Shown here: positions 2,616 to 41,331 of the stretch, piece after piece
Position numbering within the stretch: the stretch's first letter is position 1
How the letters are laid out: every line of letters begins with the position of its first letter
NCBI GenBank assembly: GCA_019695345.1
Contig: JAIBAE010000021.1
Location: 1 to 57,335 of the forward strand
Origin: Bacteroidota bacterium
Lineage (GTDB): Bacteria; Bacteroidota; Ignavibacteria; Kapaibacteriales; NICIL-2
Direction: 5' to 3'
DNA: 57,335 nucleotides
Translations under genes and position numbers: made by a program
The notes under the pieces: model-generated
What the model saw: only the letters and a program-made list of their open reading frames with translations
Database searches by the model: none
What the model was told of the DNA's origin: nothing

Positions 2616-2791
2616 TGCTATCGCAATGGGCACCAAGCATTGTGTTTTGTAATAACCACAACTTTGCCCGGATACAACAGCAACTGTTCCAGCAGGTTTA
2701 TCGTGATACGATGTGTTTAGGTAGCGCGGTTCTTTCCCGCAGTATGTGGATGTGATGTTACAGATAGGATTGATGCGGCCAAGCGATAGCA
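2616..2791. mobile_element. MITE copy M1 (TGCTATCGC-TIR family), 176 bp
   Basis: Left end TGCTATCGCAATGGGCACC and right end GCGGCCAAGCGATAGCA are inverted. The internal TTCTTTCCCGCAG motif is shared with other copies. It is inserted between a terminator T-run and the stop of the minus-strand gene at 2796. Confidence 0.7.
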
Positions 2792-2795
2792 ACAA

Positions 2796-4268
2796 CTACG
2801 GAATTACAATGCCTTCTTTTTTTAATTGGTCGTGAAGCCACAGTATAGGCATGTAATCTGCCTTGTGCAAACCGGATGTTAGCGATGTTTGAATATGTTT
2901 TATGGTACTGTTAAAAAACTTTGCGCGCTTTTTTGGTTCGTTGGCTAAGATGCCTTGGTAAAAGGCGCGGTAAGCGTTTACTATTTCGTGTTCGTGTGGT
3001 TGCAGTATTTCCAGATTGCGCCTGCTGAACCGTTTGGCAAAGTTTACGATTTCGCGCAGAGCGTCTTCGGTATCTCCGCGCATGTGCGCTATAATGCTTA
3101 GTATAAACCACGCATAATGATATTCGTTTTCGGGTGCGCGGTTGATTTGTTGTGGTAGTGTTTTGGATGCCGATTTCCAGTCGTCTAAAAATATATGAGC
3201 AAATGCTTTTAACACCATAAACCGGAAGCCAACGCGGGCATCGTTTACAACACGTTCGTAGTGTTCTTCTATTACATGCAGTGCTGTGGGGTAGTCCCGT
3301 AGTTTCATAAGCGAACTACAGTAGTTAAACAACACCAGCATATCAATTGCCGGAAGGTTGAACTTCTTCATGAATTCAATGGCGGCAAGGTTTGCTTCGG
3401 CAGCAGCTTTGTGGTCCGAAGCAACATTCATAAGCAACGTACCGTATGTACTAAAAGCAATAATTTTTTCGCGGCGTAGGGTTATGTTGTCGTCGGGTAT
3501 TTGTAATACATAATCAACAGCTTTTTGGGCCGCTTCAAGCCGTCCCTCGCCACGATATTGTACGGCAATAGCTTTATGGCGGAAGTATTCAATCAGGGCG
3601 TTTGTTTGGGCGTGTATATCGGCATCTAAAATTCGTGGGGTGCGTTTGTAATCATACCCACTTGCTTCTACGGTGTGTTCGGCTGCAACACAATAGCTTT
3701 GCATGCGTTCTGCCTCGGAAACATAGAACAACCGAAGTACATCTGCTCGTTTTTGTATAAGTGCAATGGTATCCAACATCCGTTCGTGCGATATCGAACC
3801 ACGGTAGTTAACCGAGAGAAATTGCATTTCGATAATATCAAGTGCCGTAGTGTAATCGTATATATCTATTGCGTGTGTACATGCTTTCTCGGCAACGGCA
3901 TCAAACTCTTGCCATAATTTTTTAGCAAGCAACGTGCGTAGTAGGGCTATTTCGCGTTTTCCTTGGTTGCGTTTTAGCTCTTCGGTATAGGACTGCACCG
4001 TTAGTAAATCATATATCCTGTTTAGCAGTAAGCGGTATTCGTTGCGTAATAGGTAGTCTTCTTTATCGGTATATGGGCGGCTGTAACATTTGCTAAACAC
4101 ATCTTCTTTTTGTTCTTCCAGATGAATGCCCGCATTAACAGCCGTACACACAATATCCCACAATGTAATAAGTTCTTTTCTGGATTGTGTGCGTACATCG
4201 TCATCCACAAGCTCACGTTCGGATGGAGTAAGTGCAAGTACAACCTTTTCAATACGCAACAAAGCCAT
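2796..4268 (-). CDS. Hypothetical alpha-helical (TPR-like) protein, 490 aa
   Basis: The ORF track labels this ORF '+', but the translation MALLRI...EGIVIP matches the reverse complement. The complement of 4266-4268 is ATG and the complement of 2796-2798 is TAG; I verified the last 14 codons by hand. No domain recognised. Leu/Tyr-rich helical repeats are present. Confidence 0.6.
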   Translation of the reverse strand: MALLRIEKVVLALTPSERELVDDDVRTQSRKELITLWDIVCTAVNAGIHLEEQKEDVFSKCYSRPYTDKEDYLLRNEYRLLLNRIYDLLTVQSYTEELKRNQGKREIALLRTLLAKKLWQEFDAVAEKACTHAIDIYDYTTALDIIEMQFLSVNYRGSISHERMLDTIALIQKRADVLRLFYVSEAERMQSYCVAAEHTVEASGYDYKRTPRILDADIHAQTNALIEYFRHKAIAVQYRGEGRLEAAQKAVDYVLQIPDDNITLRREKIIAFSTYGTLLMNVASDHKAAAEANLAAIEFMKKFNLPAIDMLVLFNYCSSLMKLRDYPTALHVIEEHYERVVNDARVGFRFMVLKAFAHIFLDDWKSASKTLPQQINRAPENEYHYAWFILSIIAHMRGDTEDALREIVNFAKRFSRRNLEILQPHEHEIVNAYRAFYQGILANEPKKRAKFFNSTIKHIQTSLTSGLHKADYMPILWLHDQLKKEGIVIP

Positions 4269-4660
4269 AATACCGGTTCTACAGTTAAAGTACGGGGCGC
4301 GCCAAGTATGTAAATAAGCGTATCACAATTGGCACAAATGGAATTGGGTACGAAACTACTACAAGATAAGTTTGAATAAAAGTTTTCCTTTACAGTAACA
4401 AAATTGCAATGCGGGCTAAAAAGCAATCACCAAGGCGTAAAAAGGCAAATACAACTGCCCATAAAAAGAGTGCTTTGCCCAAACGTAATGTAGTTACTAT
4501 TGCACCTGCTGATGCCTACGATATGTTTCTGTTACAGTTCATTGCTTCCGAAACACCACATCCTGCCATTGCCGATACCACGCTTCCATACAACGATCTG
4601 TATGATGCCACACCATAATATCACAATCTGATTTTTTGGGATAGCGATGTACACCACTAC

Positions 4661-4866
4661 TGCCGAAGCACGCGATGTGCGCGGCAACCCTGTCCGCTCC
4701 GAACCTTTAACGGCGCAGGACAAATCACAAATGAACAAACACCAACCTGTATGGGTAAATAGATATTCGCCCACGATATAGGTTACTGCTGTCATTACGC
4801 GAAGCAGAAGGAACGGTTCGCACCGGGTTGGCGCGCTTAAGGATTGCTTCGGCAAGTGTGGGAAAC
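4661..4866. repeat. Dispersed intergenic repeat cluster (family B, two members in opposite orientation, plus GGCGAAT hairpin fragment)
   Basis: CTGCCGAAGCACGCG…GTCCGCTCCGAACCTTTAACGGCGC at 4661-4722 and CGGTTCGCACCGGGTTGGCGCGCTTAAGGATTGCTTCGGC at 4813-4866. Between them lies AAATAGATATTCGCCC, a fragment of the hairpin repeat. Confidence 0.6.
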
Positions 4867-8069: not shown

Positions 8070-8079
8070 TATCTTCTTT

Positions 8080-8216
8080 TGCTATCGCGTGACGGCACCG
8101 CATGTTGGTTTATGAATCCCGTCATAATGCCGGAGAGTCTCGCCGTTGTAGGTTCTTTCCCGCAAGCTGACAAAGTGTATTTGCTACACGCGTCTCGGTG
8201 CGGTCCGGCGATAGCA
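8080..8216. mobile_element. MITE copy M2, 137 bp
   Basis: TIRs TGCTATCGCGTGACGGCACCG / CGGTGCGGTCCGGCGATAGCA. It starts 11 bp after the stop of the NTPase gene. Confidence 0.75.
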
Positions 8217-9317: not shown

Positions 9318-10142
9318 TTACATCCGTGAAAGTACTTCTTTTACCAATGCCGTCATGCGTGGTTGTGCAATGTGTGCCGCTTCCAGAATCTCCGGTAACG
9401 AAACGGGTTGCAACGAGTCCGGGAAACACTCATCGGTAATTACCGAGATTCCCAATGCTTTCATGCCGGCGTGAACAGCAACAATAACCTCGGGAATAGT
9501 ACTCATGCCTACTACATCTGCACCAATGTTCCGCAGGAAGCGATACTCGGCGCGTGTTTCTAAGTTTGGGCCGGCAACGGCAACATAAACACCCTTTTGT
9601 ACTTTCAGTTTCAAATCGAGCGCGCATTGCTCTGCAAGTGCAATCAACTGGTTAGAATACGGCTCGCTCATATCGGGAAACCGCGGACCAAGAGTATCAT
9701 CGTTAGGACCAATTAACGGATTATCGCCAATAAGATTGATATGGTCGGTAATTAACATAATATCGGCGCGTTTAAACAACGGGTTCATTGCCCCGCACGC
9801 GTTCGATACAATTACGGTTTCCACGCCAAGGGCTTTCATTATGCGCACGCCATGTGTAATCTGCTTCATGGTGTAGCCCTCGTAATAATGGAAACGTCCT
9901 TGCATAACAACAACGTTTTTGCCGCCTAATGTTCCAAACAACAATCGCCCTGCATGAGTCTCCACGGTAGAGTGCGGCATGTTGGGAATATCGGTGTACG
10001 AAATACTCGTCTGCACATCTACTTCGGTAGCCAAATGTCCCAGCCCCGTACCCAGAATAATCCCAACCGTAGGTTGTGCGTTAGTAAGTGCCCTGATAGC
10101 CGCTACCGACTCTTGTATCTTTTGTGCTAACTCCGAAACCAT
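9318..10142 (-). CDS. punA: Purine nucleoside phosphorylase (PNP/MTAP family I, trimeric type)
   Basis: Strong similarity by eye to human/bacterial PNP. Matching motifs: GRFHYYEGY, VSNACGAMNP, DHINLIG, GPRFPDMS, VAGPNLETRAE, GADVVGMSTIPEV. Confidence 0.85.
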   Translation of the reverse strand: MVSELAQKIQESVAAIRALTNAQPTVGIILGTGLGHLATEVDVQTSISYTDIPNMPHSTVETHAGRLLFGTLGGKNVVVMQGRFHYYEGYTMKQITHGVRIMKALGVETVIVSNACGAMNPLFKRADIMLITDHINLIGDNPLIGPNDDTLGPRFPDMSEPYSNQLIALAEQCALDLKLKVQKGVYVAVAGPNLETRAEYRFLRNIGADVVGMSTIPEVIVAVHAGMKALGISVITDECFPDSLQPVSLPEILEAAHIAQPRMTALVKEVLSRM

Positions 10143-10233: not shown

Positions 10234-10400
10234 TGCTATCGCAAACCGCACCGAACGTCCTTAACAAACAACCGTTGTTGTGCGGGAGAGAATGGTTTGT
10301 TCAATCTCATACGATTAGCGTTTAGGTGTGGATAGGCATTATATCCCGCCGGAAAAGGTTACTGCTATAAGTTGCCGCTTGGTGCGGTCGGGCGATAGCA
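10234..10400. mobile_element. MITE copy M3, 167 bp
   Basis: TIRs TGCTATCGCAAACCGCACCG / TGGTGCGGTCGGGCGATAGCA. Confidence 0.75.
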
Positions 10401-10553: not shown

Positions 10554-12461
10554 ATGGGACCATTTGCCTCTGTTTTATGGGTTGTTGTACCCATTTTGTT
10601 CTTCCTGATTTTTTACCGCCTTATCTTCAGGATTTTTGGTATCGTTATCATCCCCGAAAACAAGGTTGGGCTTGTTACTAAAAAGTTTGTACTATTTGGT
10701 GCACACAAAGAACTACCCGACGGGCGCATTATTGCTGTAAACGGCGAGGCCGGATATCAGGCAAAGCCACTTGCCCCGGGTGTGTATTTCTGGATGTGGT
10801 TTTGGCAGTACGAAATAAAGATGCAAGACTTTGTTGTAATCCCCGAAGGTAAGATTGGATTACTTGTTGCTAAAGACGGTGCAGAGTTAGAGACCGGCCG
10901 GGTTCTGGCGCGTAAAGTTGAATGTGATTCATTTCAGGATTCTGTTGCGTTTATTACTAGTGGCGGTCGTAAAGGTAGGCAGTCTGCGTTCATCACTACC
11001 GGAACATATCGTATCAATACATTCCTGTTTGATATTATCATTACCGATATGACGCACATTCAGGAAAACAAAGTTGGTATTATTACCACGTTAGATGGTA
11101 TGCCCATAGAAGAAGGACAAATAGCAGGTAAACAAATTGAAGGTCATAATAATTTTCAGGATACGGATGCATTCTTAGCAAATGGTGGTAATAAAGGTTT
11201 ACAGCCACAGGTGATTTTGGCGGGGTCGTATAACTTAAACCCGTGGTTTGTTCAGGTTGAACAAATTAACATGACGGAAATCCCGATTGGCCATGTTGGC
11301 GTTGTGATAAGTTATGTTGGTAAAGAGGGCGAGGACGTAAGTGGTGTTGAGTTCCGCCACGGTAATATTGTTGCTAAAGGGCATAAAGGTGTGTGGGCAG
11401 AACCGTTTGGCCCGGGTAAGTATCCCATCAACACGTATATACAACGCACCGAGTTGGTACCAACAACAAACCTTGTATTAAACTGGGCTTCAGCCCGAAG
11501 CGAGTCGCATCAATTAGATAAAAATCTTTCAACCATAACAGTACGTAGTAAAGATGGTTTCCCATTTAACTTAGATGTATCGCAGATTATCCATATACCA
11601 TCCAACGAAGCACCAAAAGTTATTGCACGGTTTGGTAACATGATGAATCTTGTTACACAAGTATTAGAACCAACTATTGGTAATTACTTCCGTAACTCGG
11701 CACAGGAAGCTGATGTTATTGCATTTTTAACATCGCGTAAAGAACGCCAGGAATCTGCAAAGCAACATATAAGCAGAGTGCTTGAACAATACAACGTGTA
11801 CGCAGTTGATACATTAATTGGCGATATCGTTCCGCCGGAATCGCTGATGAAAACACTTACCGACCGTAAGATTGCCGAAGAACAAAAAGTAACATTCGAA
11901 ACCCAACGTCAGGCACAGGAAACACGCCAGAAGTTGGAAAAAGAAACAGCCATTGCCGAAATACAAAAAGAAATTGTAAAAGCAGACCAAGGTGTGCAGA
12001 TTGCAAAACGTATTGCCGATGCCGCAGTAGAAAAAGCAAACGGCGAAGCAACCGGAGTAAAAATCTCGGCAAATGCCGAGGCGGAAAAAACAAAAGTTAT
12101 TGCAGGTGCAGATGCCGAACGCACTAAGCTAACAGCCGGTGCCGAAGCGGAAAAGATTCGCGCACTTGCAAACGCCGAAGCCGAGAAAATCTCGGTTACC
12201 GGTAATGCCGAAGCGGAAAAGATTCTGGCAATTGGTAAATCCAGCGCCGAAGCATACCGCTTACAAGTTGATGCAATGGGCGGCGATAACTTCACACGCC
12301 TAAAAGTAACCGAAGCAATTGGCACAAGTAAAATCAAGATTATACCGGATGTACTTATTGCCGGCGGGTCAGGCGACTCACCCAACGGTCCAATAAGCGG
12401 GTTGCTTGGTTTAAAACTCATGGAAGACCTTTCCAAACAAACCGAGAAAAAACAGGAATAA
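10554..12461 (+). CDS. Flotillin-like SPFH/band-7 family protein
   Basis: N-terminal TM segment. An SPFH-like region is followed by a long Ala/Glu/Lys-rich coiled coil carrying AEAEK repeats (KISANAEAEKTKVIAGADAERTKLTAGAEAEKIRALANAEAEKISVTGNAEAEKILA), as in FloT/YqiK flotillins. A terminator hairpin follows. Confidence 0.8.
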   Translation: MGPFASVLWVVVPILFFLIFYRLIFRIFGIVIIPENKVGLVTKKFVLFGAHKELPDGRIIAVNGEAGYQAKPLAPGVYFWMWFWQYEIKMQDFVVIPEGKIGLLVAKDGAELETGRVLARKVECDSFQDSVAFITSGGRKGRQSAFITTGTYRINTFLFDIIITDMTHIQENKVGIITTLDGMPIEEGQIAGKQIEGHNNFQDTDAFLANGGNKGLQPQVILAGSYNLNPWFVQVEQINMTEIPIGHVGVVISYVGKEGEDVSGVEFRHGNIVAKGHKGVWAEPFGPGKYPINTYIQRTELVPTTNLVLNWASARSESHQLDKNLSTITVRSKDGFPFNLDVSQIIHIPSNEAPKVIARFGNMMNLVTQVLEPTIGNYFRNSAQEADVIAFLTSRKERQESAKQHISRVLEQYNVYAVDTLIGDIVPPESLMKTLTDRKIAEEQKVTFETQRQAQETRQKLEKETAIAEIQKEIVKADQGVQIAKRIADAAVEKANGEATGVKISANAEAEKTKVIAGADAERTKLTAGAEAEKIRALANAEAEKISVTGNAEAEKILAIGKSSAEAYRLQVDAMGGDNFTRLKVTEAIGTSKIKIIPDVLIAGGSGDSPNGPISGLLGLKLMEDLSKQTEKKQE

Positions 12462-12485: not shown

Positions 12486-12519
12486 AAGGCAGATGTAATA
12501 TCTGCCTTTGTTGTTTCTG
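12486..12519 (+). terminator. Rho-independent terminator after the flotillin gene
   Basis: Stem AAGGCAGAT / ATCTGCCTT (9 bp), loop GTAAT, then TGTTGTTTCTG. A MITE copy starts immediately afterwards. Confidence 0.7.
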
Positions 12520-12784
12520 CTATCGCAATCCGCACCGTACCGTTAGCCGTTTGTAGGGGCGTGATTGCATACGCCCGCCTTCATCTGCGGGAAAGAATCT
12601 CGTACGCCACACAGCATTTACCGTGATGAGAAATACGAACACGGAGAATCGGAGACACAGAGGATTGCACGGAGTTCTTTTACTCTACCATCACGATAAC
12701 CGCTTGGGTTGTATTGAATATTCTTTCCAGCAGAGTGTGGATATGTTGATAAACCTGTGGATAGGTGCCGCAATGCGCAAGCAC
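12518..12784. mobile_element. MITE copy M4 (long form, 267 bp)
   Basis: Left TIR TGCTATCGCAATCCGCACCG. About 95% identical to copy M5 over its whole length. Right end is GCCGCAATGCGCAAGCA. The track's spurious ORF 12623..12811 lies inside it. Confidence 0.75.
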
Positions 12785-12883
12785 AGAATGAATACCGTAG
12801 TATTACCGTAGCAAATTGGTGCTTACGTAATGATAAGTTCGCAATGTAGTTATATGAATTATCACATTGTATAGGTTACTTCT

Positions 12884-13648
12884 ATGAAAACTCTTTGCCA
12901 TAACGTACTGTTTTACTGTGTTTGTATTGTTGTAGCTGTGTTAATGTTTGATTGTTCTGAGCAACCAAAAGAGCCAGCTAATCTTGCAGTTGAATACTCT
13001 GCACCTCAAACAATCCAGAGAATACGACAGACAACATTCAACAATTCAATGCTGAGTACCGACTCGTTATTGGTATCGGATATACGTATGATAAACGGAA
13101 AGAATGCAGTTGCGGTAATGTTGGCTTCGGATATTTCCAAGCCACTGTATTACGAAGCGCTAGATTGGCAAGGTTTACATATTTATCAACATCCGCTACC
13201 GGAGTTATCGGGTGTAGTACCTGTGGCTTGTACTGAACGTTGGGTGAGGTATTCAACATATTCTGATACAGAGAATTGTTGGGTAAATATAGATACCACC
13301 GTTGTTGGTGCACCATGCACAATTAACGATAACCGCTGTACTATTGATGCACGGATAACATCGTACACAGCACGGAATTCCAATTCCGGAAACATATTGC
13401 CTGCTTGCACGCAGTATGTACGTGTAACTACAGTTAATGGTACAGTACACTCTGCCCAAGGTAATATTCCGGTGCAATGGAAAATTACACGCAACGTATA
13501 TTGCAGTTACCAGCATGGTATAGAACAAGCTATACAGGAACCAACAGTATTGGATGCAGGTGCATTAGGTAAGCTAACTGTTAGCGGGATACAAACTTCG
13601 GTTCGGTTTTATGTTCAGCAGGGTAAATCCTTAGCTATAGAAAAATAG
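12884..13648 (+). CDS. Hypothetical Cys-rich secreted protein or lipoprotein
   Basis: ORF of 254 aa. Hydrophobic N-terminus with a possible lipobox (VLMFDC). About 14 Cys. No recognisable domain. Confidence 0.45.
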   Translation: MKTLCHNVLFYCVCIVVAVLMFDCSEQPKEPANLAVEYSAPQTIQRIRQTTFNNSMLSTDSLLVSDIRMINGKNAVAVMLASDISKPLYYEALDWQGLHIYQHPLPELSGVVPVACTERWVRYSTYSDTENCWVNIDTTVVGAPCTINDNRCTIDARITSYTARNSNSGNILPACTQYVRVTTVNGTVHSAQGNIPVQWKITRNVYCSYQHGIEQAIQEPTVLDAGALGKLTVSGIQTSVRFYVQQGKSLAIEK

Positions 13649-13691
13649 AATTGATAGGCACTCTTGCAATACATGTACCGGGTGTATCACC

Positions 13692-14141
13692 ATGAACAAA
13701 CCTGTTACACCTACAACGGAGAAACCGCTGGTTAACAATAAGAAAAAGAAATTGAAACGTGTTGCTTCTACAAAACAACGTGCACGAGCAAAAGCAATTA
13801 CCGGCTCTTTTGTAGAGTTGAATTCCTTATTGGCTAAACAAGCGATAGATGAATTAGAAGATATATTTAAAGAAAGCACGTTAACGTTACCAGAATCATT
13901 TCCCGTGTTACACAAAGAGTACTTGCAACAACTCTCGGGCGTATACCCGGAGTTTACAGAACTTCAGCTAAAAATATGCGCACTACTAAAGGTATATTGT
14001 ACACAAGCGGAAGTTAGCGCTATCCTTGATATACCGTTTCATGTATTACAACAGGAAATTATAGATATACAACACAAGTTGCTGTTACCTTTGCCTAATA
14101 TGGTAGAACAAACATTGCAACAAGAACACACTACAACATAG
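13692..14141 (+). CDS. Small protein with a degenerate LuxR/GerE-like HTH, basic N-terminus
   Basis: The C-terminal segment FTELQLKICALLKVYCTQAEVSAILDIPFHVLQQEIIDIQHKL is paralogous to the HTH of the downstream regulator (TPMELKICALLKIQLSTKEIAAALVLSTRTVEDHRNRMRKKFGL). Its stop TAG at 14139-14141 abuts the next ORF's TTG at 14142. Confidence 0.5.
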   Translation: MNKPVTPTTEKPLVNNKKKKLKRVASTKQRARAKAITGSFVELNSLLAKQAIDELEDIFKESTLTLPESFPVLHKEYLQQLSGVYPEFTELQLKICALLKVYCTQAEVSAILDIPFHVLQQEIIDIQHKLLLPLPNMVEQTLQQEHTTT

Positions 14142-16229: not shown

Positions 16230-16254
16230 AAGTAATTTCTTTTGGTACCCCACA

Positions 16255-16395
16255 TCTGCCGAAGCAACCGCGCCAGCGCGGCAACTCTGTCCGAGCCGCA
16301 CGTTCAGCGGCGCGTACTCAGCTTTGCGATGCTGTATCGTTTTGTCCCGCCCGTGTGACGGCGCACAACGGCACGCTTCAGCAAAGGAGGGAAAC
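16255..16395. repeat. Family B dispersed repeat (reverse-type, composite)
   Basis: CTGCCGAAGCAACCGCGCCAGCGCGGCAACTCTGTCCGAGCCGCACGTTCAGCGGCGC … CCCGCCCGTGTGACGGCGC. Related to the copies at 4661, 28691 and 31471. Confidence 0.55.
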
Positions 16396-16400
16396 CACAA

Positions 16401-16430
16401 ATAAAAAAGGGAACATCGCTTTGTGTTCCC
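16401..16430 (-). terminator. Terminator hairpin (best on the minus strand; possibly bidirectional)
   Basis: Stem GGGAACA / TGTTCCC (7 bp). An A-run lies 5' on the plus strand, which is a T-run on the minus strand. It sits between convergent genes. Confidence 0.6.
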
Positions 16431-16461
16431 TTGTGCGTTTGTACTTTTAGTTACTATAGTA

Positions 16462-16881: not shown

Positions 16882-16912
16882 AAAACTCCCCTATAAATAA
16901 ATAGAATAATGA

Positions 16913-17860: not shown

Positions 17861-18040
17861 ATATCATAGCTAATAGTTCAACAAACAGATAACTGGTAGA
17901 AAATGGCATTATATCATTGAATGTTTGTAGCACATTTTGCTATCAGTTTTACCAATGCAAACTATTATCCGTAACAAGCAAATGCACTACGGTATTACTA
18001 CGGTATTGCCGTAATGGGCAGGGGAAGTTATTGTGTTATC

Positions 18041-18304: not shown

Positions 18305-18308
18305 AGAA

Positions 18309-23850: not shown

Positions 23851-24045
23851 GTAAAAATATATCTATTATGATTTGTAGTTAAAGGATTAAACTTTTATCA
23901 ACAGAATTGTGTGTGATAGCGAACTGCCTATATTTGTAAAGCATCGAATTTCAAAAATTAAGTGTATTCGGTATCTTTATATATAGAGCAGTGTGATACT
24001 GTAGATATTTGCGTTATTTTATTCACATTATAGGGGAGTTCTTTT

Positions 24046-28344: not shown

Positions 28345-28462
28345 TCCCACTTCTGCCGAAGCATCGCTTAAGCGCGCCAACCCGGTGCGAGCCAAACGTT
28401 CAGCGTCGCAGATAATTACTCTCTCGCAAAGTAGCAAAGACGCAGAGGGTACGAATGGTGTC
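28345..28462. repeat. Family B dispersed repeat with leader segment (reverse orientation, about 115 bp)
   Basis: TTCTGCCGAAGCATCGCTTAAGCGCGCCAACCCGGTGCGAGCCAAACGTTCAGCGTCGCAGATAATTACTCTCTCGCAAAG…. This is the reverse complement of the 44363-44480 and 49054-49170 type. Confidence 0.65.
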
Positions 28463-31470: not shown

Positions 31471-31556
31471 CATGGCTTCCCACTTGCGCCGTAGCAATCC
31501 GCCAGCGCCGTCACACGGGCGGAGCCAATCGGTACAGCATCGCAGTGAATGTTATG
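31471..31556. repeat. Family B dispersed repeat (reverse-type variant)
   Basis: …GCGCCGTCACACGGGCGGAGCCAATCGGTACAGCATCGCAG. Compare 46808 and 54502: GCCGTCACCCGGGCGGAGCCAACCGTTCAGCGTCGCAG. Confidence 0.55.
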
Positions 31557-31936: not shown

Positions 31937-32063
31937 ACGGTTACCTGCAAGTACCGCACGTAGGACATAATGAATTGCCGCCCGTTTTTGCACATGGGAT
32001 AAAGGGAGCAAGGTGTGTTAAGGTGGGCTTATGGTTTTACTCACATTATAATAGGAGTTCTTT

Positions 32064-33374
32064 ATGAAACTCAGATTTGTTTTTTGTTGGGCAATCTTGT
32101 TATGCCTGACACACACACTTGCACGGGCCGGTAGTATCAATGATACTGTTTGGACAAAGCGGCTAAAGTCACCTATAAGTTTTATTACTTTTTCTCCTAA
32201 GGGTAATTTTATTGTCGTTGTATCCGACACAACTACCTATCTCTATGATAAAAACGGAACAGTTATCAATTCAAAAATTCCATCTCCGACAGGGCCAATG
32301 GGTAGTAGCAATCTTCAAGTGTTTATCACACAAGACGAACAACGAATAATCATGCAACATGATTCTGTTATACAGAGTTATGATGTTAAAACAGGAGAAC
32401 TCTTGAGGTCATTTGATGTTGATACAACACTATTCCGCATTGCAGCCATAAGCCCGAATGAACGATATTGCCTAACGCTTCAAAGTAGAAGTGGTGGTAT
32501 GTTTGATTCTGAAAATGGTTGGAAGGTATGGGATATGCAAACTGGAAAAGTATTGTATTCTAAGGATTATCAGAAAGAACCTGATTTTGATGTTGTAGCT
32601 CCATTACAAGGTAACGTTCTTTGTCAATCAAACAGAATAGTTGTACTGGAATATCGGAGATACAAAAATTCTTCTCGTACGCAGTTTACGACTCTGGTTT
32701 ATGACATCGAAACTCAACAAGTAACAGATACAATATTAAACACTCAAGAAGGATATAGTTTCAATGTCTCGCCTGATTGTAATTATTTCCAGTTTAGAAC
32801 CGATAGAACAGACTCCGGGATTGTTGTAAATAACCTAAAAACAGGAAAAGAACTATACAAGGTAAGATGCTTTGGAAGCACCTCAAGCACCATTGCCTTC
32901 ACACCCGACGAAAAGTATATAGCTATTGGAGACCCAAGTGCAGGAACAATCAAAATACTTAACTCAATTACTGGAGAGTTAACATGGAATGCCCCCGGTT
33001 CAGTTTATGGAATTAGTTTTAATAATGATTATTTGATGGCAATGTATCTACAAGAGTATTTAGTTTTAGCAAAACCAAAATTAAGTTCCACTAGTGTTAC
33101 TGGTAATGATATTATTGAAACAGATAATGTTCTCTATCCCAATCCAAACAGCGGTATGGTAAGCTATAGTATTACTTTAGATAAACCAAGTACCATCATC
33201 AACGAAGTTGTTTCTGTATCAGGTGAAATTTCTTTTCGGAACGAAACCCCATTGTTAGAATCCGGGAAACAAACAATTACCATTCCATTAGATAGTGTTG
33301 CTAACGGAGAATATCTGTTGAAGGTAAACGCCGGAACCAAAAGCATTACGTACAAACTTATCATTAACAAATAG
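32064..33374 (+). CDS. T9SS-secreted beta-propeller (WD40/PQQ-like) protein, paralog A1
   Basis: Signal peptide MKLRFVFCWAILLCLT. Beta-propeller-like blades. The C-terminal T9SS-like sorting domain (…YPNPNSGMVSYSITLDK…EYLLKVNAGTKSITYKLIINK) is identical to that of paralog A2. AGGAG SD upstream. Confidence 0.75.
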   Translation: MKLRFVFCWAILLCLTHTLARAGSINDTVWTKRLKSPISFITFSPKGNFIVVVSDTTTYLYDKNGTVINSKIPSPTGPMGSSNLQVFITQDEQRIIMQHDSVIQSYDVKTGELLRSFDVDTTLFRIAAISPNERYCLTLQSRSGGMFDSENGWKVWDMQTGKVLYSKDYQKEPDFDVVAPLQGNVLCQSNRIVVLEYRRYKNSSRTQFTTLVYDIETQQVTDTILNTQEGYSFNVSPDCNYFQFRTDRTDSGIVVNNLKTGKELYKVRCFGSTSSTIAFTPDEKYIAIGDPSAGTIKILNSITGELTWNAPGSVYGISFNNDYLMAMYLQEYLVLAKPKLSSTSVTGNDIIETDNVLYPNPNSGMVSYSITLDKPSTIINEVVSVSGEISFRNETPLLESGKQTITIPLDSVANGEYLLKVNAGTKSITYKLIINK

Positions 33375-33386
33375 GGATGTACAACC

Positions 33387-33860
33387 ATGAAAAACCTAAT
33401 CATTTTGGTAACAATATTCGTTACCACACTTTCGGCGTATGCACAAAACAATATTAACCCACAACCCCTCGGTACCTTCACTACCGATAACATTGATTGG
33501 AATAGTACTGTATTTAACACTAACATCAACTATTTTGTCCGCTCATGGAATTGGGCTCGCCCCTGTAAAAAGCTCGATGATGCCTTGTACATTAACAGCT
33601 ATCACAACATAAATTTCGACAACATCATCGAAACCAATCTCGACGTACCCGATAATCTACCCGTGTTTCAACAACTCTACGGCGACCCCAACAACTGGTG
33701 GCGAGGTGCAGGATTAACCCAATCTTGGAGCACACCAAGTTTATTTAATACACAAAGTATGTGTTACCACCCCGAACTAACAGTCGACACAACGGACAGT
33801 TTTCAACCCATGTTGAACGATGCTCAAGGCGCAGTATTTGGGTGGTTAAATAATATGTAA
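33387..33860 (+). pseudogene. Truncated 5' copy (157 codons) of the 1767-aa giant T9SS protein gene
   Basis: The first ~150 codons are near-identical at DNA level to 35758..36210. The reading frame ends where a dispersed-repeat copy (33862-33920) interrupts the homology. Confidence 0.75.
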
Positions 33861-33861
33861 T

Positions 33862-33920
33862 CCCGCTTACGCCGAAACGAAACTCAAGCGCGCCAACCCT
33901 GTGCGAACCAACCGTTTACC
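33862..33920. repeat. Family B dispersed repeat (reverse-type) at a segmental-duplication junction
   Basis: CCGCTTACGCCGAAACGAAACTCAAGCGCGCCAACCCTGTGCGAACCAACCGTTTACC. It sits exactly where homology between the truncated (33387-33860) and full-length (35758-) gene copies ends. Confidence 0.65.
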
Positions 33921-34243
33921 TATCGCAATCATATTGTGTAGGTTATCCACATGAGTAGAAAATGAGTACCACATGAGTAGAAAATGAGTACCACCCTATT
34001 AAAAAACATTATTTACGTTTGCTAAGATTTTGCTAAGATTTTGCTAAGAAATCTACATCAATACATTAAACATATTTGAATTGTAAGAACTGATAAGAAT
34101 TGTCTTTGCCGTTGAACCAATCAATTGTAAGTTTGGAGCAAGGTAAAACAATAGGCATCAGGATATACATATAGTCATTTAGTTTTTTGATACATAGTTA
34201 GCGTTTGTTACTGGATTCCATACTAAAACTTGCCAAGTTATTG

Positions 34244-34303: not shown

Positions 34304-34428
34304 CGGTTCTGGCAAGTACCGAGTATGGAGCATAAATGAAATGCCGCCCGTTTTTGCACATGGGAAAAAGGGAGCAAGGTGTGTTGAGGTGGGCTACTTG
34401 TTTTACTCACATTTTTTAGGAGTTCTTT

Positions 34429-35745
34429 ATGAAACTCAGATTTGTTTTTTGTTGGGCAATCTTGTTATGCCTAACCAACATACTGTTATGTGCCGGAGGT
34501 ACCGAAGATACCGTTTGGACGCGGCGGCTAAAGTCACCAATAAGTTTTATTACCTTTTCACCTAAGGGTAATGTTATTGCTGTTGTGTCTGACACAACAA
34601 CCTATCTCTATGATAAGAACGGAATGGTCATCAGTTCAAACATTCCATCTCCAACAGGACCACTGACTAGTTTTAATAATAAAGTTTTTTTCGTGCAAAA
34701 TGAAGAAAACATATTGATGTTACATGACTCTGTAATACAGATATATAGCACACAAACAGGTGATTTGGTTCAATCATTTGATATAGATACAACATTGATT
34801 CGTATAGAGGGCATAAGCTCAGATGAGCAATATTGTTTAACAATACAAAGTAGAAGCGGAGGAATGTTTGATTCTCAAATTGGTTGGAAAATATGGGATA
34901 TGAAAACAGGAAAAGTACTAAAGTATAAAGAGTATAACGAGCCGCTTCCGAATGTCCGTAAAGTATCTCCATATATGGGTACATTTTTGTGTTCAGGTAA
35001 CAAAGTAGCTATAAAGGAATTTAAATATTACAATTCACCACCCGGAACATCAACTACGTACACAGTTATTTACGACGTAGAAACGCTTACTCCTTTAGAT
35101 ACAATTCAGGAAGAAGAAAAATCGTGGAAATTTACCATGTCACCGCAATGTACGTACATAGCATATAATTTACAACGCAATGATACCGGAATAAAAATCT
35201 ACAATGTAGCCACTAAAAAACTTGTGCGCTCACTTCGATGCAATGGCAATTCTGCCAGTACAATAGCATTTACTAATGATGATCAATATATTATAGTTGG
35301 GAATGTTGGTACTAACACTATAGATGTTACAAAGGTATCAACCGGAGAAAATGTATGGCATTTAGAAGGCACTACTCCACAGGGAATAAGTATCACAAGT
35401 GATAATTATTTGGCATTATTTGTTTCGTACCATTTGGATTTATACAAGCCAAATTTCCTAACAAGTGTTTCCGATATATCTCATCAAACAATTAACACAG
35501 TCATCTATCCAAATCCGGCAATTAAGGATTTACAATTAGGGGTAGAAATAGTATCACCATCAAGTGTAAAAATAGAAATAATATCTTTAATCGGAGTAGT
35601 AGTTTATCAAACAGAAACCCCACTACTCAACTCCGGTAATCAAACAATAACCATACCGTTAGAGAGTGTTGCTAACGGAGAATATCTGTTGAAGGTAAAC
35701 GCCGGAACCAAAAGCATTACGTACAAACTTATCATTAACAAATAG
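34429..35745 (+). CDS. T9SS-secreted beta-propeller (WD40/PQQ-like) protein, paralog A2
   Basis: Same N-terminal 16 aa and same C-terminal ~35 aa as A1 (identical DNA). The core is only about 45-55% identical by eye. SD AGGAG upstream. Confidence 0.75.
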   Translation: MKLRFVFCWAILLCLTNILLCAGGTEDTVWTRRLKSPISFITFSPKGNVIAVVSDTTTYLYDKNGMVISSNIPSPTGPLTSFNNKVFFVQNEENILMLHDSVIQIYSTQTGDLVQSFDIDTTLIRIEGISSDEQYCLTIQSRSGGMFDSQIGWKIWDMKTGKVLKYKEYNEPLPNVRKVSPYMGTFLCSGNKVAIKEFKYYNSPPGTSTTYTVIYDVETLTPLDTIQEEEKSWKFTMSPQCTYIAYNLQRNDTGIKIYNVATKKLVRSLRCNGNSASTIAFTNDDQYIIVGNVGTNTIDVTKVSTGENVWHLEGTTPQGISITSDNYLALFVSYHLDLYKPNFLTSVSDISHQTINTVIYPNPAIKDLQLGVEIVSPSSVKIEIISLIGVVVYQTETPLLNSGNQTITIPLESVANGEYLLKVNAGTKSITYKLIINK

Positions 35746-35757
35746 GGATGTACAACC

Positions 35758-38700
35758 ATGAAAAACCTAATCATTTTGGTAACAATATTCGTTACCACAC
35801 TTTCGGCGTATGCACAAAACAATATTAACCCACAACCTCTCGGTACCTTCACTACCGATAACATTGATTGGAACAGTACTGTATTTAACACTAACATCAA
35901 CTATTTTGTCCGCTCATGGAATTGGGCTCGCCCCTGTAAAAAGCTCGATGATGCCTTGTACATAAACAGCTATCACAATATAAGCTTTGATAACATCATT
36001 GAAACCAATCTCGACGTACCCGATAATCTACCCGTGTTTCAACAACTCTACGGCGACCCCAACAACTATTGGCGAGGTGCAGGATTAACCCAATCTTGGA
36101 GCACACCAAGTTTATTTAATACACAAAGTATGTGTTACCACCCCGAACTAACAGTTGACACAACGGACAGTTTTCAACCCATGTTGAACGATGCTCAAGG
36201 TGCAGTATTTGGTTGGCTAACCAAACAACTTGGCGCACGTGGCACCGGAACCGACCAATGGCGTTGGGTTTTGCAAGCAAATCAAGTAAGTGGTACACGT
36301 GTTAAAGTTCTTTCCAATGCTTGGAAACCTGATGCCTTTACGTTTCTTGATTGGTTAATTAATCAAGGTGATCTGGCTGACACGTGGGCTACAGGCATGA
36401 ATGATTTACAAACTGGTTCTATTCTTGATACAGGTTTCTACCATCCCCGTAACGGTAAAAGAATGTACTGCACCATCAACCTGCGTGCAACAAATACATC
36501 ACAAATAGCACAACATCTCGATGACCCTGTACTGGCAATCCGGCTTCCGTATGTATTGTATGATTCTGCTTCAGGAAACAGTACAAACGGGGTTATTGTA
36601 TTTGATTCATTACCGAATGCAAATGCCACACTAACGCAAATAGTTGGGCGCAATGCAAACGATACACGTGGGATGTATCGCCCGCAACAACTTTCCCGCG
36701 ATACCATAATTATCATAACAGGAAGGATGTTACAAAACGCCAATACCGATAACAGTGTAACACTTTCAGGATTTTTCTTTGCTGATGGTTTAACTCACCA
36801 AGGAGTTTATGACAACAACCCAAGGTTTAAGGATGAGCGTGGCGACATACAAGCATCTTTGCAAAGTATTATAAAATTAGATGTTGAGGCTTACTATTAC
36901 GGCAATGTAGATGTTGCAATAGATTATATAAGAATAGAAACACAACAAGCCCGCAAAATATACTTTGGTTCAATAGATAACCCTGCCCGTGATTCTTTAC
37001 AAGAAACAATAATACGTTTTATACTTAATAGTAAGCACCCACGCCTTGCACGTATTTATGGAGTAGAAGAGCGAAGACAATCATGGTGGGGTGTTAACCG
37101 CTATTTCAATAAACTGATGAATGATAATGCCACAACCGAACTGGGTATTCATGAAAATTCACCGTACAGCCATTATATGCATGCAACTGGGTATAAAGAG
37201 CTTTGGAATGCATATACGTTGTTATTTAATGCAGGTGTTGCAGCTCCTTATCTACGATATGCTCATCATGATTCTGTAGGTACTGGTAATAATATGCATA
37301 ACGTCTTTTCAGCAAGAACTTTTGGGTTTATGGCCGGATATAGTGGTAATGATTGGCTTACAAATCTACCACCATCCAACTGGGATACGCTTAAATCACA
37401 TTACGAAACCATTATCAACTCTTCAACACAACCCGGACTTACCGGATTTGCAAATAATTCCTATGCTCCGTACCAAAAATTTAATAGTGGTAGTGCAACG
37501 CATTATACCCTAGGGGTTCAATTTGAAATTGAACAACAGTTATACCAACGGTATTACAAACAAAATGCCTTCTTGTTTGGCTCAACAAAATGGTGGGCTA
37601 ACATTTGGGCTTCATCATGGGGGTGGCGTTTGGATAATAGTATTAATACAGCAAAGTTGAACGCTAATGAGGTACGCCCTAAAACAGGGGAAGAGCTACA
37701 ATATATACTTTGGAACACAATATTAATGGGTGCTAAAGGTATTCAATATTATGCTGATATAAGTTTACCTAATGAAGGTACTGGTTTTGGTGCATTAGTT
37801 GGTTATATAGTTCGTGACCCACTTGGATATGCGAACAATAATTATCCAACGGGTAACGCCTTGCTGTATTCTGATGTAGCAGGCACGGATTGGATGGATT
37901 TAAATGATATACAAAGTAATAATTGGAGCAACATTGTTCATATACAAAATAATTGGTTGAATTTAATGGGTACAGACCAAAATCATATTTATGTAGGTAT
38001 GAAAACACCCCGAGTGGTTACGTCAAAAATAAATAAATGGATTTCCGACAATGAACAAGAGTTATTGGCATTGAAATTACAGGCATGGTATGGTAAAGGG
38101 TTTGTAAAAATGTACACTCAACATAGTCAGTATCAGGTAAACGATACACTGTTAGGTCATTATGTTAATCTATCAGGGCTAAAATCGCGTCCAATCAACC
38201 GAGTTCATCAAGATGGAACACCTTACTATGAAAACGAATCGTTACAGAATGGAGATTCAACCTTTGCTGATGTAATGTTACATAAACATTCATCATTTTC
38301 ATTAGACAGTGTGTTTTATCTTGGTGTGCAATCACGTAGAACAGACCCACTCTTCAGAGAAAGTTCCTATAATAATGGCGAAATGACTTTTATACCTACA
38401 GCAGATTGGGATAACCTCATGCAAAACGGTGGAACATATTGGCGTGACAACAATAGTCAAACAACCGCTTGGTGGCAAGACAAATACTGGAAACGACAAG
38501 GATGTAGAGAAATCACAATTCCATTTAACTATTCCACATTGCCAAGTGAACCCCGATTACTCCATGTACAGGAAGTAGGAGGAGGAATAGATACGATAAT
38601 AAGAACAACAGGAAAATTGGCAATCAGGTTTACTCCCGGGGAGGGCAAGCTTTTGAGAGTTACAATCCAACGGGCAAGGTTAGATGTAGCAGAAGGAGAA

Positions 38701-41061: not shown

Positions 41062-41091
41062 AGTTTGAGATTACTATTAATCTTAAACAAA

Positions 41092-41134
41092 GGGTGACTG
41101 TGAGCAAGGGAGCGCAGTCGCCCTTTTTTATTTT
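41092..41134 (+). terminator. Rho-independent terminator after the giant T9SS gene
   Basis: Stem GGGTGACTG / CAGTCGCCC (9 bp with one G-U pair) followed by TTTTTTATTTT. Confidence 0.8.
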
Positions 41135-41267
41135 CACTTGATAGTTATTAAAGGAGCAAAGCACTTGGATGTTGACGCTGTTGGCGGTGATTCTCTGCAA
41201 ACCACTATTGCAGAATGGATGAATACTCATTTGAATCAGTCACGATAAAGGTTGGAACAGTAGATGA

Positions 41268-41331
41268 ACTTTTCTCTCCCGCATGGCAAGGCACACGGGA
41301 GAGAGCTAAGGTTTGGTGCGGTTTGCGGTAG
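41268..41331. repeat. Partial MITE (right end only)
   Basis: TTCTCTCCCGC…CGGGAGAGAGCTAAGGTTTGGTGCGGTTTGCGGTAGCA matches the M6 right end (TCTCTCCCGCCG…AAGGTTTGGTGCGGTCATGCGATAGCA). Confidence 0.5.

Follow-up and report, generated by a model that had tools for sequence, protein, structure and literature searches.

What is the short non-coding sequence that recurs beside gene ends throughout this DNA, and did it come to these places as a mobile element or does it stay there as a signal of its host? The window, by which we mean the whole stretch of 57,335 nucleotides analyzed here (contig JAIBAE010000021.1), derives from an uncultured activated-sludge bacterium, Candidatus Kapaibacterium. An initial annotation had described a MITE family with terminal inverted repeats (TIRs), and the presence of a repeat family was confirmed: the window contains 12 occurrences of the 9-mer TGCTATCGC where 0.42 would be expected, a count reached in none of 100 shuffles, and nine of GGTGCGGT where 1.48 would be expected. 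A match to the 9-mer at 53478-53486 was rejected as a chance match, because it lies within an ORF without any other module. The repeats were resolved into 15 units, all of them intergenic, which form six inverted pairs and three solo units.

When 14 ends from the window and 49 units were aligned, a polar unit of 70-95 nt with a modular structure emerged. Its outer edge consists of a T-rich leader of 5 nt and the almost invariant 9-mer. Inward of the 9-mer come a spacer of 3-4 nt, the heptamer CCGCA(CC), a loop of about 29-34 nt that varies in sequence and is nearly constant in length (about 50 nt if a small hairpin is nested in it), TGCGG, GA(A/G)AGAA and, about 25 nt farther inward, TTATCGTG. 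The six full copies that had been annotated were all recovered, with the 18041 copy ending at 18305 and the right end of the 12518 copy being degenerate. What had been listed as a solo TIR (23666-23689) and as a right-end fragment (41268-41331) proved to be complete solo units, and one further solo unit (44145-44234) was added. The features are as follows.

2616-2791: inverted pair, 176 bp, flanked on one side by the terminator of ORF 303-2549(+) and on the other by the stop of ORF 2796-4268(-).
2616-2791, left unit (+): 9-mer 2616-2624; stem GGGCA 2628-2632 / TGCCC 2665-2669, a doubly compensated variant; TTATCGTG 2698-2705.
2616-2791, right unit (-): 9-mer 2783-2791; stem CCGCA 2774-2778 / TGCGG 2737-2741.
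8080-8216: inverted pair, 137 bp, filling the gap of the convergent stops 8069 and 8222; heterotypic, with a type-B left unit and a type-A right unit.
8080-8216, left unit: 9-mer 8080-8088; stem CGGCA 8093-8097 / TGCCG 8128-8132.
8080-8216, right unit: 9-mer 8208-8216; stem CCGCA 8199-8203 / TGCGG 8160-8164.
10234-10400: inverted pair, 167 bp, in the divergent region from ORF 9318-10142(-) to the flotillin gene 10554-12461(+); top nhmmer scores of the window (E 1.5e-15 and 2.5e-11).
10234-10400, left unit: 9-mer 10234-10242; stem 10246-10250 / 10281-10285.
10234-10400, right unit: 9-mer 10392-10400; arm 10383-10387; inner motif TAATCGTA 10310-10317.
12518-12784: long inverted pair, 267 bp, 3' of the flotillin terminator; nested GGGGCGT..ACGCCC hairpin inside the left loop, CACGGAG-rich core.
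12518-12784, left unit: 9-mer 12518-12526; stem 12530-12534 / 12586-12590; loop of 51 nt.
12518-12784, right unit, degenerate: TGCTTGCGC 12775-12783; arms CGGCA 12766-12770 / TGCTG 12728-12732.
18041-18305: long inverted pair, 265 bp, bordered by the start of ORF 16913-17860(-) on one side and by the stop of ORF 18309-18986(-) on the other.
18041-18305, left unit: 9-mer 18041-18049; stem 18053-18057 / 18108-18112.
18041-18305, right unit: 9-mer 18297-18305; stem 18288-18292 / 18251-18255.
20819-21071: inverted pair, 253 bp, filling the gap of the convergent stops 20807 and 21076.
20819-21071, left unit: 9-mer TGCTAACGC 20819-20827; stem 20832-20836 / 20869-20873; TTATCGTG 20902-20909.
20819-21071, right unit: 9-mer 21063-21071; arms 21054-21058 / 21018-21022.
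23666-23756 (+): solo unit, 67 nt 5' of ORF 23032-23598(-), with no second end in the neighboring 450 nt; 9-mer 23666-23674; arms 23679-23683 / 23716-23720; inner motif CTATTGTG 23749-23756.
41241-41333 (-): solo unit, downstream of lspA (41588-42373, -); 9-mer TGCTACCGC 41325-41333; stem 41317-41321 / 41279-41283; TTATCGTG 41241-41248.
44145-44234 (+): solo unit, partly degenerate, 49 nt upstream of the start of a PolX-like gene, 42434-44095(-); 9-mer TGCTGACGC 44145-44153; stem 44158-44162 / 44194-44198; TTATCGTG 44227-44234.

About 40 further loci were drawn from metagenome assemblies. Since these units were retrieved with an exact three-motif pattern, their conservation and their solo-to-pair ratio are biased; a scan of genome collections used a 16-base pattern, and its matches were almost all due to chance. 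The density in the sampled DNA was about one unit per 4 kb, and 16-17 units were counted in about 69 kb of the species, which by extrapolation gives a genome copy number in the hundreds. A search of the whole window against Rfam 15 returned nothing at the gathering threshold; for the units themselves, no match was obtained over 2000-24500 with E up to 5 or over 41200-44520 with E up to 1. The annotated phage and plasmid collections contained no match either, and nothing relevant appeared in the literature searched.

CCGCA pairs with TGCGG of its own unit and not with the other end. Among 75 units, a2-b4 was the sole strongly covarying pair of columns (MIp 0.54 versus at most 0.25), being C-G in 64, G-C in 10 and C-T in one. 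Three compensated variants were found (CGGCA/TGCCG, GGGCA/TGCCC and CGCCA/TGGCG), and the stem stays complementary with G.T(U) pairs tolerated. Because type-B and type-A units coexist in one element, the pairing is intra-unit rather than end-to-end. The right-unit arms of 12518-12784 read CCGCA / TGCGG in the sister strain, and hence both sides of one pair changed within the species, from C-G to G.T. No structure beyond the 5-bp stem was supported. The loops of partner units were no more alike than those of non-partners (-4.4 versus -3.6, sd 4.0), so that a pair does not form the long hairpin of a REPIN. Solo units, more than 20 of which were inspected by eye in the metagenome loci, are conserved as well as paired ones and carry an inner motif of their own. 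The single unit is therefore the basic entity, which occurs alone or as an inverted pair, and the annotated TIRs are the outer part of this larger, asymmetric unit.

The inverted pairs, which are what had been annotated as MITEs, span 126-267 bp, and their length is set by how the units abut and by nested small hairpins, so that the three size classes initially proposed have no meaning. The 9-mer and the heptamer stand inverted at both ends in the six pairs of the window and in at least nine pairs at metagenome loci. The copies at 12518 and 18041 are identical at 248 of 267 positions (93%); their homology begins about 10 nt outside the 9-mer and ends at the right 9-mer, and their flanks are unrelated. 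The claim that the long forms are about 95% identical thus holds approximately for these two but not for the 20819 copy, which is only 64% identical to them. Pairs that combine a type-B left end with a type-A right end form a subfamily, which recurs at six loci or more. Together with the 93% identity between unrelated flanks, this recurrence supports the conclusion that whole pairs have been copied.

Copying raises the question of how the target was treated, and it is here that a classical MITE has to be weighed. In that case the elements would be deletion derivatives of an IS with a DDE transposase, with TG...CA termini and subterminal binding sites, in which the target-site duplications have decayed and solo units are broken copies. 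The conserved inverted termini do read 5'-TG...CA-3', all copies are non-coding, shorter than 300 bp, flanked by AT-rich sequence, dense and lineage-specific, and the several conserved subterminal motifs recall the multi-site ends of transposons such as IS21, Tn7 and Mu. However, target-site duplications, for which a check had been suggested, did not appear consistently in 15 full elements. Direct repeats above chance were absent from 13 of the 15, and the 8-bp repeats near the ends of the other two, which would suit a MITE (ATTAATAT at 8080-8216, p ~0.008; AAACAATT at L138, p ~0.04), lie at inconsistent offsets of 7/4 and 3/3 nt. The youngest pair, with its 93% identity, shows no direct repeat. 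The left flanks are rich in T and the right flanks in A, so that they are inverted (mirror-symmetric) and not direct, and the sequence abutting the outer ends is merely T-rich (about TTTKT, with 58-73% T at positions -5 to -1 on both sides). The equal conservation of solo units with their own inner motif also speaks against broken copies, and compensatory changes within a unit are unexpected for double-stranded binding sites of a transposase. The word MITE therefore fits as far as dispersed non-coding repeats with inverted termini are concerned but not as regards TIRs and target-site duplication by a DDE transposase, and we consider a classical MITE quite unlikely.

A partner enzyme was sought on several scales. 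The initial annotation was right that the window contains no transposase, as judged from Pfam searches of the large ORFs and from precomputed gene tables. The window, about 12 kb of additional flank, 63 metagenome loci and about 48 kb of a phage contig yielded no Y1/HUH, DDE or recombinase gene and no autonomous IS with the termini of the unit. None of the ORFs examined matched Y1_Tnp or RAYT, and no TIR-bounded ORF occurred at any locus. In the two cases in which units flank a gene, the enclosed genes, MraY and an SDR, are housekeeping genes, a further point against a classical MITE. Of the two observations by which the MITE proposal could be overturned, a lack of any TIR-matched IS and conserved synteny of the copies, the former holds within about 70 kb of the species, and the latter was shown for one copy.

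The distribution of the units indicates age rather than the active or recent transposition initially suggested. The sites of all copies at 1-31 kb and 44-57 kb of the window are likewise occupied in GCA_044230155.1, in GCA_046329015.1 and in several metagenome contigs (97-99% identity); the pair at 8080-8216 has the same sequence in GCA_044230155.1 and five metagenome contigs, and the solo unit at 23666-23756 was found in three other genomes or contigs of the species. Insertion polymorphism, for which comparative genomics had been suggested as a check, was not seen among four genomes of the species (about 97-98% identity), and neither was excision. All copies are thus fixed and old, and mobility is inferred from the copies alone. 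At the one locus compared across species, an orthologue of 41241-41333 was present in the metagenome contig L147 (74-82% identical), with the same right flank and intact motifs, the other side holding a different gene; the syntenic locus in GCA_044228285.1 lacks the unit. No unit was found in nine sampled regions of eight related genomes (about 170 kb), which supports restriction of the family to one lineage. A predicted phage contig of 51.6 kb contains 11-12 units, all solo, in both orientations relative to the operons. They punctuate its small-gene half, where small ORFs of unknown function are set apart by units, and are placed either in the gap from a stop to the following start or 20-25 nt ahead of starts that have a Shine-Dalgarno sequence.

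The proximity to gene ends that had been noted was borne out in the window (2791/2796, 8069/8080, 8216/8222, 18305/18309, 20807/20819 and 21071/21076). The MBL-fold protein adjoining 20819-21071 ends at the last residue of its homologues, and its stop codon is therefore native. Of 42 units, 20 have their outer end 1-19 nt behind a stop codon in sense orientation, usually at 1-11 nt, in 3'-untranslated and intercistronic positions, and such sites imply that the units are probably transcribed with the upstream gene. Solo units are closer to the stop than under uniform placement (Fisher p 0.001-0.005), and at convergent gene pairs one unit faces each gene. At L185 and L162 a canonical terminator hairpin lies 3' of the unit, which would then belong to the transcript. 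Other units lie upstream of divergent genes; the chromosomal units adjoin ordinary housekeeping genes in both orientations and form no arrays. Overall, a dispersed, multi-copy, non-coding and intergenic family with inverted conserved termini adjoining gene ends is supported.

These positions bring in the main rival, a host-encoded intergenic signal that is shared with phage and not primarily mobile. One possibility is a cis-acting RNA element, located in 3' UTRs and between cistrons, that a dedicated protein binds or processes; another is a polar DNA site to which a protein binds, for instance as a transcription roadblock. In either case the copies would persist because they are functional. 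Two half-sites for a protein, spaced by about three turns of the helix, would also account for the constant length of the loop. The sense orientation behind stops, the facing of each convergent gene by one unit, the terminators beyond units and the retained complementarity with G.T(U) pairs all agree with a signal. So does fixation within the species, and so does the orthologous unit with intact motifs beside a flanking gene only 74% identical; this cross-species copy and the 11-12 copies in a compact phage genome speak for function and not for selfish spread. On the other hand, Rfam gave no family even at E up to 5, only the 5-bp stem has structural support, and the unit contains no promoter-like or terminator-like features. 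The occurrence of both orientations in phage operons and of units upstream of divergent genes is at odds with a signal, as is the absence of units from the sampled regions of the eight related genomes, which have the same kinds of genes. Moreover, copying is required to explain why pairs of 265 bp at unrelated loci are near-identical and why heterotypic pairs are inherited. A host signal is possible but, in our view, rather doubtful as the primary explanation; it does not exclude a REP-like origin, as REPs are both copied elements and signals.

Units that begin directly behind stops and set apart the small ORFs of a phage also recall cassette systems, in which an integron attC-like site, folded as a single strand, is the substrate of a site-specific recombinase, and in which a unit or pair would define where a mobile gene cassette ends on its 3' side, chiefly in the small-gene region of the phage. 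With a 9-mer and a heptamer set 3-4 nt apart, and with its copies inverted, the unit has a two-box layout that is reminiscent of R and L boxes. However, the AAC/GTT core is not conserved in the units, a solo unit does not have the second half required for an attC-like hairpin, neither the window nor about 48 kb of the phage contig yielded an integrase or recombinase, and the housekeeping neighbors on the chromosome, in both orientations and without arrays, do not resemble the co-oriented cassette arrays that integrons have near an intI gene. We regard this explanation as highly improbable.

We therefore favor, with a probability of roughly 45%, the view that the units are lineage-specific, non-autonomous, non-coding REP/BIME-like repeats with a putative hairpin-dependent partner enzyme. 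Units and whole pairs would have multiplied by copying into new intergenic sites without duplication of the target. The putative enzyme would probably be supplied in trans and probably read the hairpin and the adjacent 9-mer on a single strand, in the manner of HUH/Y1 enzymes of the IS200/IS605-RAYT kind and not of DDE enzymes. The copies are probably transcribed with the upstream gene, and they may later have acquired a role in the host. The 5-bp stem and the loop of about 30 nt, which are unlike the hairpins of REPs or IS200/IS605, count against a REP/BIME-like nature. An unlikely extension is that the unit is the recognition site of an undescribed hairpin-dependent system common to Kapaibacterium and its phage, a mobile regulatory cassette proximal to stop codons. 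An enzyme would read the 9-mer 3-4 nt from the short stem on a single strand and thereby copy the unit, and the unit, once inserted, would act on the RNA of whichever gene is transcribed into it. If true, this would be a Bacteroidota counterpart of REP/RAYT with another architecture and with phage as a vehicle.

Small interspersed repeats have received much study in Proteobacteria, in Neisseria and in streptococci, and to our knowledge they have barely been described in the Bacteroidota-Chlorobi-Ignavibacteria radiation. The signature of the present family is clean and easily searched, and its association with stop codons is polar. If a partner enzyme exists, the family would offer a second, architecturally different system for studying the long vertical persistence of non-autonomous repeats; if the units are signals, they would mark transcript ends and intercistronic sites in a lineage without genetics and link phage to host. 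In practice, the units break short-read assemblies and can mark the host range of Kapaibacterium phages.

Among known systems, the PeSL (promoter-early stem-loop) cassettes of the hyperplastic regions of T4-type phages, reportedly described by Arbiol et al. in 2010, likewise contain a repeated motif with a stem-loop, which in one section of the phage genome separates numerous small ORFs whose function is unknown. PeSLs are phage-specific and carry a recognizable early promoter and a terminator-like stem-loop, whereas the Kapaibacterium units show neither a recognizable promoter nor a terminator and are no less abundant in the host chromosome than in the phage. The ends of IS200/IS605 elements and of their palindrome-associated derivatives (PATEs) share with the units a subterminal hairpin whose short spacing from a conserved terminal sequence is fixed, the lack of TIR-dependent duplication, and a short conserved sequence abutting the outer end, here about TTTKT; IS608 and ISDra2 insert beside a tetra- or pentanucleotide (PMC6006769). 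In IS200/IS605, however, the left and right ends differ and the hairpins are longer-stemmed and small-looped, whereas the Kapaibacterium ends are inverted copies of one unit, the putative target is degenerate and present on both sides, and no tnpA or tnpB was found in the DNA examined.

Bacterial MITEs of the TIR type, such as the Correia/NEMIS elements of Neisseria and the ERIC/IRU elements of enterobacteria, are likewise 100-270 bp long, have inverted conserved termini and no coding capacity, are intergenic, adjoin gene ends and come in size variants through internal differences; they are co-transcribed with their neighbors, as the units probably are. Correia elements duplicate TA and ERIC inserts at TA. 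The Kapaibacterium repeats differ in that they lack a duplication, in that half elements are common and intact, and in that the heptamer pairs within its own half.

The REP/BIME/REPIN elements of Proteobacteria are mobilized by RAYT (Y1 HUH) transposases, whose single-copy gene has the repeats on either side, and RAYT-linked REPINs have been described mainly in that phylum, whereas the host here is Kapaibacterium, of the Bacteroidota. The REP unit is an imperfect palindrome of about 20-40 nt, in contrast to a 70-95-nt unit without a tight palindrome, and its conserved flank is a 5' GTAG instead of the 9-mer TGCTATCGC. Unlike in REPINs, paired units form no long hairpin across the spacer, and stem types B and A are mixed; no RAYT gene was seen among the ORFs examined, and the units are also abundant in phage. 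REPs occur as inverted doublets and singlets with compensatory changes (PMC3116915), and many lie 1-20 nt from ORF ends (PMC12306157). The Kapaibacterium family is likewise extragenic, lineage-specific and, by extrapolation, present in hundreds of copies, consists of singlets and inverted doublets without target-site duplication, retains complementarity through compensatory changes, persists for long and is fixed in the species, with many copies less than about 20 nt from a stop. In behavior, it is thus closest to REP/BIME/REPIN-type elements and MITEs.

GCA_044230155.1, a 3.28-Mb contig of GCA_046329015.1 and several short metagenome contigs match the window at 97-99% identity. It carries ordinary chromosomal genes, encoding flotillin, nucleoside phosphorylase, cytochrome c, MBL-fold hydrolases, LspA, a PolX-like polymerase and many type-9-secretion cargo proteins, and no transposase, integrase or reverse transcriptase was found among them. 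Between these genes we counted 15 copies of a polar repeat of 70-95 nt, hereafter the unit, whose outer end carries a 9-mer motif. The initial annotation had described six full copies of a MITE, a solo terminal inverted repeat (TIR) and an end fragment. The six copies lie where it placed them, and each consists of two facing units, overlapping or with a core between them (hereafter a pair, named by its start); the TIRs correspond to the outermost 20 nt of a unit. The supposed fragment and solo TIR proved to be complete single units, and one more single unit was added:

2616-2791, pair
8080-8216, pair
10234-10400, pair
12518-12784, pair, with a degenerate right end
18041-18305, pair
20819-21071, pair
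23666, single unit, formerly the solo TIR
near 41.3 kb, single unit, formerly the fragment
44145-44234, single unit, newly added

A further 9-mer at 53478 lies within an ORF and was dismissed as a chance match. The 9-mer TGCTATCGC occurs 12 times in the window against 0.42 expected, and GGTGCGGT nine times against 1.48. Units are dense in the species; including the window's 15, there are 16-17 of them in the ~69 kb of the species that was read (~2% of the genome).

The anatomy of the unit was derived from alignments, in which the ends in the window were read from the outside inward, followed by 49 and lastly 75 units from the window, metagenome contigs and a viral contig. From the outer end, a T-rich leader (T 58-73% at positions -5 to -1) is followed by the 9-mer, which is invariant at most positions, a spacer of 3-4 nt, CCGCACC, a loop, TGCGG with GA(A/G)AGAA and, ~25 nt inward of the latter, TTATCGTG. 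The loop is variable in sequence and nearly constant in length, with 26-28 nt between the aligned 7-mers, equivalent to 29-34 nt between the 5-nt stem arms, or ~46-51 nt where a 20-nt GC hairpin is nested within it. Such a constant length would also suit a protein touching two sites three helical turns apart. A pattern of three motifs retrieved more than 20 metagenome loci with a single intact unit and no partner-like sequence by eye, although degenerate partners were present beside a few apparent solos (loci L161 and L169). Because the metagenome units were chosen by exact motifs, their solo-to-pair ratio and conservation are biased; the unbiased sample in the window is six pairs to three solos.

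The unit has an intramolecular stem that is under selection. CCGCA and TGCGG are complementary, and each of the five pairs is of Watson-Crick type in 62-73 of 73 units. The second pair is C-G in 64 of the 75 units (type A) and G-C in 10 (type B, CGGCA/TGCCG), and in a mutual-information scan it alone is prominent among the column pairs (0.54 vs at most 0.25; 75 units), with which a smaller alignment agrees. Compensated variants beyond type B are GGGCA/TGCCC in the left unit of the 2616 pair and CGCCA/TGGCG at metagenome locus L134. In the right unit of the 12518 copy, CCGCA/TGCGG of one strain corresponds to CGGCA/TGCTG in the window, so that both sides of one pair were altered to give G.T. 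Since a type-B left unit is combined with a type-A right unit in at least six elements, the preserved pairing is within the unit and not from end to end. Neither RNAalifold nor the mutual-information scan detected covariation or structure besides the 5-bp stem, and folding of whole elements gave z values of -1.6 to -6, chiefly through the inverted motifs. The units matched no Rfam family. A guide-like role of the bridge RNA or omega RNA type was rejected, as loops shared 5.8 nt with their own flanks and 5.7 nt with the flanks of other units. That the unit is an attC-like site is a far-fetched reading.

Units are placed close to the ends of genes. Of the 42 units with a neighbouring ORF, 20 have their outer end 1-19 nt (mostly 1-11 nt) behind the stop codon of a gene reading into the unit. 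Solo units with genes on both sides are nearer the stop than expected if they were placed uniformly in the free intergenic space (Fisher p 0.001-0.005, 10 units); comparable tightness is absent at the inner end. Pairs occupy the entire gap between convergent stops, with ~15 nt to spare at 8069/8222 and 20807/21076. We rejected the idea that the element truncates genes and supplies their stop codons: the MBL-fold protein beside 21071 ends exactly as seven homologues do, and its stop codon is thus native. A terminator role was likewise rejected, as a U-tract after the stem is absent in both orientations, and in a crude hairpin-plus-T scan only 4 of 43 units were followed by a terminator-like site. 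By inspection, there are no boxes of the Bacteroidota type (TTTG or TAnnTTTG) or the sigma-70 type at a fixed position, which speaks against a promoter role.

The near-identity claimed for the three long forms holds for two of them (93%), the third being only 64% identical to these. The 12518 and 18041 pairs share 93% identity over 265 bp in unrelated flanks, and their homology begins ~10 nt outside the left 9-mer and ends at the right 9-mer. Heterotypic B+A pairs were found again at different loci. As judged from such sequence copies, units and pairs have been copied and would be mobile. The family also occurs in a species with 74-82% identity across the lspA region. Nine sampled regions of eight related genomes (~170 kb in total) lack it; these regions were reached through homologues of flotillin (84-92% amino-acid identity) and LspA (56-68%). 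No alignable empty site was found in the flotillin and lspA neighbourhoods of these eight genomes, which have lost synteny or alignable flanks. Divergence between strains is at least as high within elements as in neighbouring genes, and its patchiness is consistent with recombination tracts.

The elements have the look of a classical MITE, as first proposed, but target duplication and insertion polymorphism, both expected on that reading, were not found. Among 15 full elements, comparison with shuffles revealed no consistent target-site duplication; two 8-bp direct repeats were found at differing offsets, one of which (ATTAATAT, around 8080-8216) includes the stop codons of both convergent genes. 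No copy was polymorphic among four genomes. Furthermore, the two flanks mirror each other, one T-rich and the other A-rich, and at no locus do units bound coding sequence, except for housekeeping genes between separate units. Two loci with units 1-2 kb apart were considered as autonomous copies and rejected, because they enclose MraY and an SDR, and no transposase. It is therefore improbable that these are MITEs moved by a DDE transposase. A search of a genome collection with the 16-base TIR pattern, which is too short, returned at least 104 stretches, nearly all of them chance matches in unrelated phyla, and the third module was absent from all Bacteroidales matches listed. A full element had no BLAST match among annotated phages and plasmids, the 9-mer was met in the literature only as primer coincidences, and no description of repeats in Kapabacteria was found.

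The three-motif pattern matched a single IMG/VR contig, IMGVR_UViG_3300033075_001822 (51,572 bp, GC 39-41%; loci L184-L186 and L194-L197), a predicted phage with genes for an endolysin, a minor head protein, HNH endonucleases, a 2181-aa methyltransferase-helicase protein and many small ORFs of unknown function. In the ~48 kb read, no transposase or integrase family was reported for its ORFs, and there are 11-12 units, all solo, of which 9-10 lie in the small-gene half. They fill intergenic gaps in both orientations, some directly after a stop and 20-45 nt ahead of the next start, others with the outer end 20-25 nt ahead of an opposite-strand start led by a Shine-Dalgarno sequence. The common repeat suggests that Kapaibacterium is the host of this phage. 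Phage copies and retention across species suggest that carriers gain something from the units. An intergenic signal shared by host and phage is our second-ranked explanation, rather doubtful and compatible with the REP/BIME-like reading preferred below.

The window also holds other repeats. A second, unrelated family (~60-95 nt, core GGTTCGCACCGGGTTGGCGCGCTTAAGG.TTGCTTCGGC) is represented on both strands, by at least 12 copies; it recurs in metagenome contigs bearing units, is absent from the related genomes sampled, matches no Rfam family and shows no clear fold (z -0.1 and -2.0). In addition, GC-rich hairpins of ~20 nt (GGGGCGT..ACGCCC, GGGGCGAATAGACATTCGCCC, GGGCAGAAAATTTTCTGCCC) are dispersed in intergenic DNA, and in some units are nested at the same loop position; they look like a third mini-repeat class in the genome and also occur at metagenome loci L114, L142, L157, L168 and L126.

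4652-4707, second family
4770-4862, second family
12555-12577, GC-rich hairpin
16246-16304, second family
18078-18099, GC-rich hairpin
23759-23851, second family
28345-28439, second family
31478-31544, second family
33861-33931, second family
44255-44278, GC-rich hairpin
44383-44476, second family
46804-46878, second family
47021-47044, GC-rich hairpin
49075-49167, second family
54501-54570, second family
54719-54742, GC-rich hairpin
56803-56826, GC-rich hairpin
56930-56953, GC-rich hairpin
57204-57297, second family

A ~90-nt block (41375-41465, + strand) next to the solo unit that ends at 41333 is 92% identical in the related genome GCA_044228285.1, where the flanking lspA and polX are only ~67% identical. 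It contains a 10-bp hairpin with compensatory changes (CCCCCAGACG/CGTCTGGGGG vs CCCCTTGACG/CGTCAAGGGG), and its terminal hairpin sequesters GAAAGGAGG immediately before a 12-codon ORF that is not conserved. The block, which has a fold z of -4.2 and no Rfam match, is a candidate for an undescribed structured RNA or leader. The sole presence/absence difference seen between strains is a hairpin-rich segment of 179 nt (19082-19260), present in the window and GCA_046329015.1; in GCA_044230155.1 its place is taken by 23 unrelated nt, and the repeat involved is a different small hairpin repeat (GTCATTCCCGA...TCGGGAAT; ATACCCG...CGGGTAT). An inverted repeat of ~17 nt (TACCGTAGTATTACCG / CGGTATTACTACGGTA) lies at 12800-12830 and 17990-18010, just outside the 12518 and 18041 pairs on the sides facing the intervening 5.2-kb segment (12785-18040). 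Recent gene duplications include a 2.3-kb segment that bears a gene for an FG-GAP protein (46.8-49.2 kb vs 54.5-56.8 kb, 92-95% identical) and tandem beta-propeller type-9-secretion cargo genes (32052-33503 vs 34417-35874, 75-89% identical), and four 228-bp tandem repeats (51500-52411) encode HYR domains within the ORF at 49406-53896. Because the final 560 bp of the window match these repeats and not the downstream sequence in the 3.28-Mb contig, the contig of the window probably ends in an assembly collapse.

The family leaves no target duplication and is lineage-restricted, fixed, stop-codon-proximal and present in a phage. We tentatively rank first, at a probability of about 0.45, a REP/BIME-like non-autonomous repeat. 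Its units would be spread by a trans-acting enzyme recognizing the 9-mer and hairpin on a single strand; we infer such a reader because the layout of the unit is that used by HUH/Y1 transposases (IS200/IS605, RAYT), which recognize a conserved end sequence a few nt from a short hairpin and move without duplication (PMC3116915, PMC6006769). Compared with their substrates, the stem of the unit is unusually short and its loop long, and no HUH/Y1-type gene was seen in the ~2% of the species genome read. REP/REPIN sequences occur as singlets and inverted doublets with compensatory changes, cause no duplication, persist for long and are often near stop codons (PMC3116915, PMC12306157). Although the unit is not a short palindrome and has no GTAG, and the pair forms no long doublet hairpin, the family shares with them the singlets and inverted doublets, the compensatory changes, the absence of duplication, the persistence and the proximity to stop codons.
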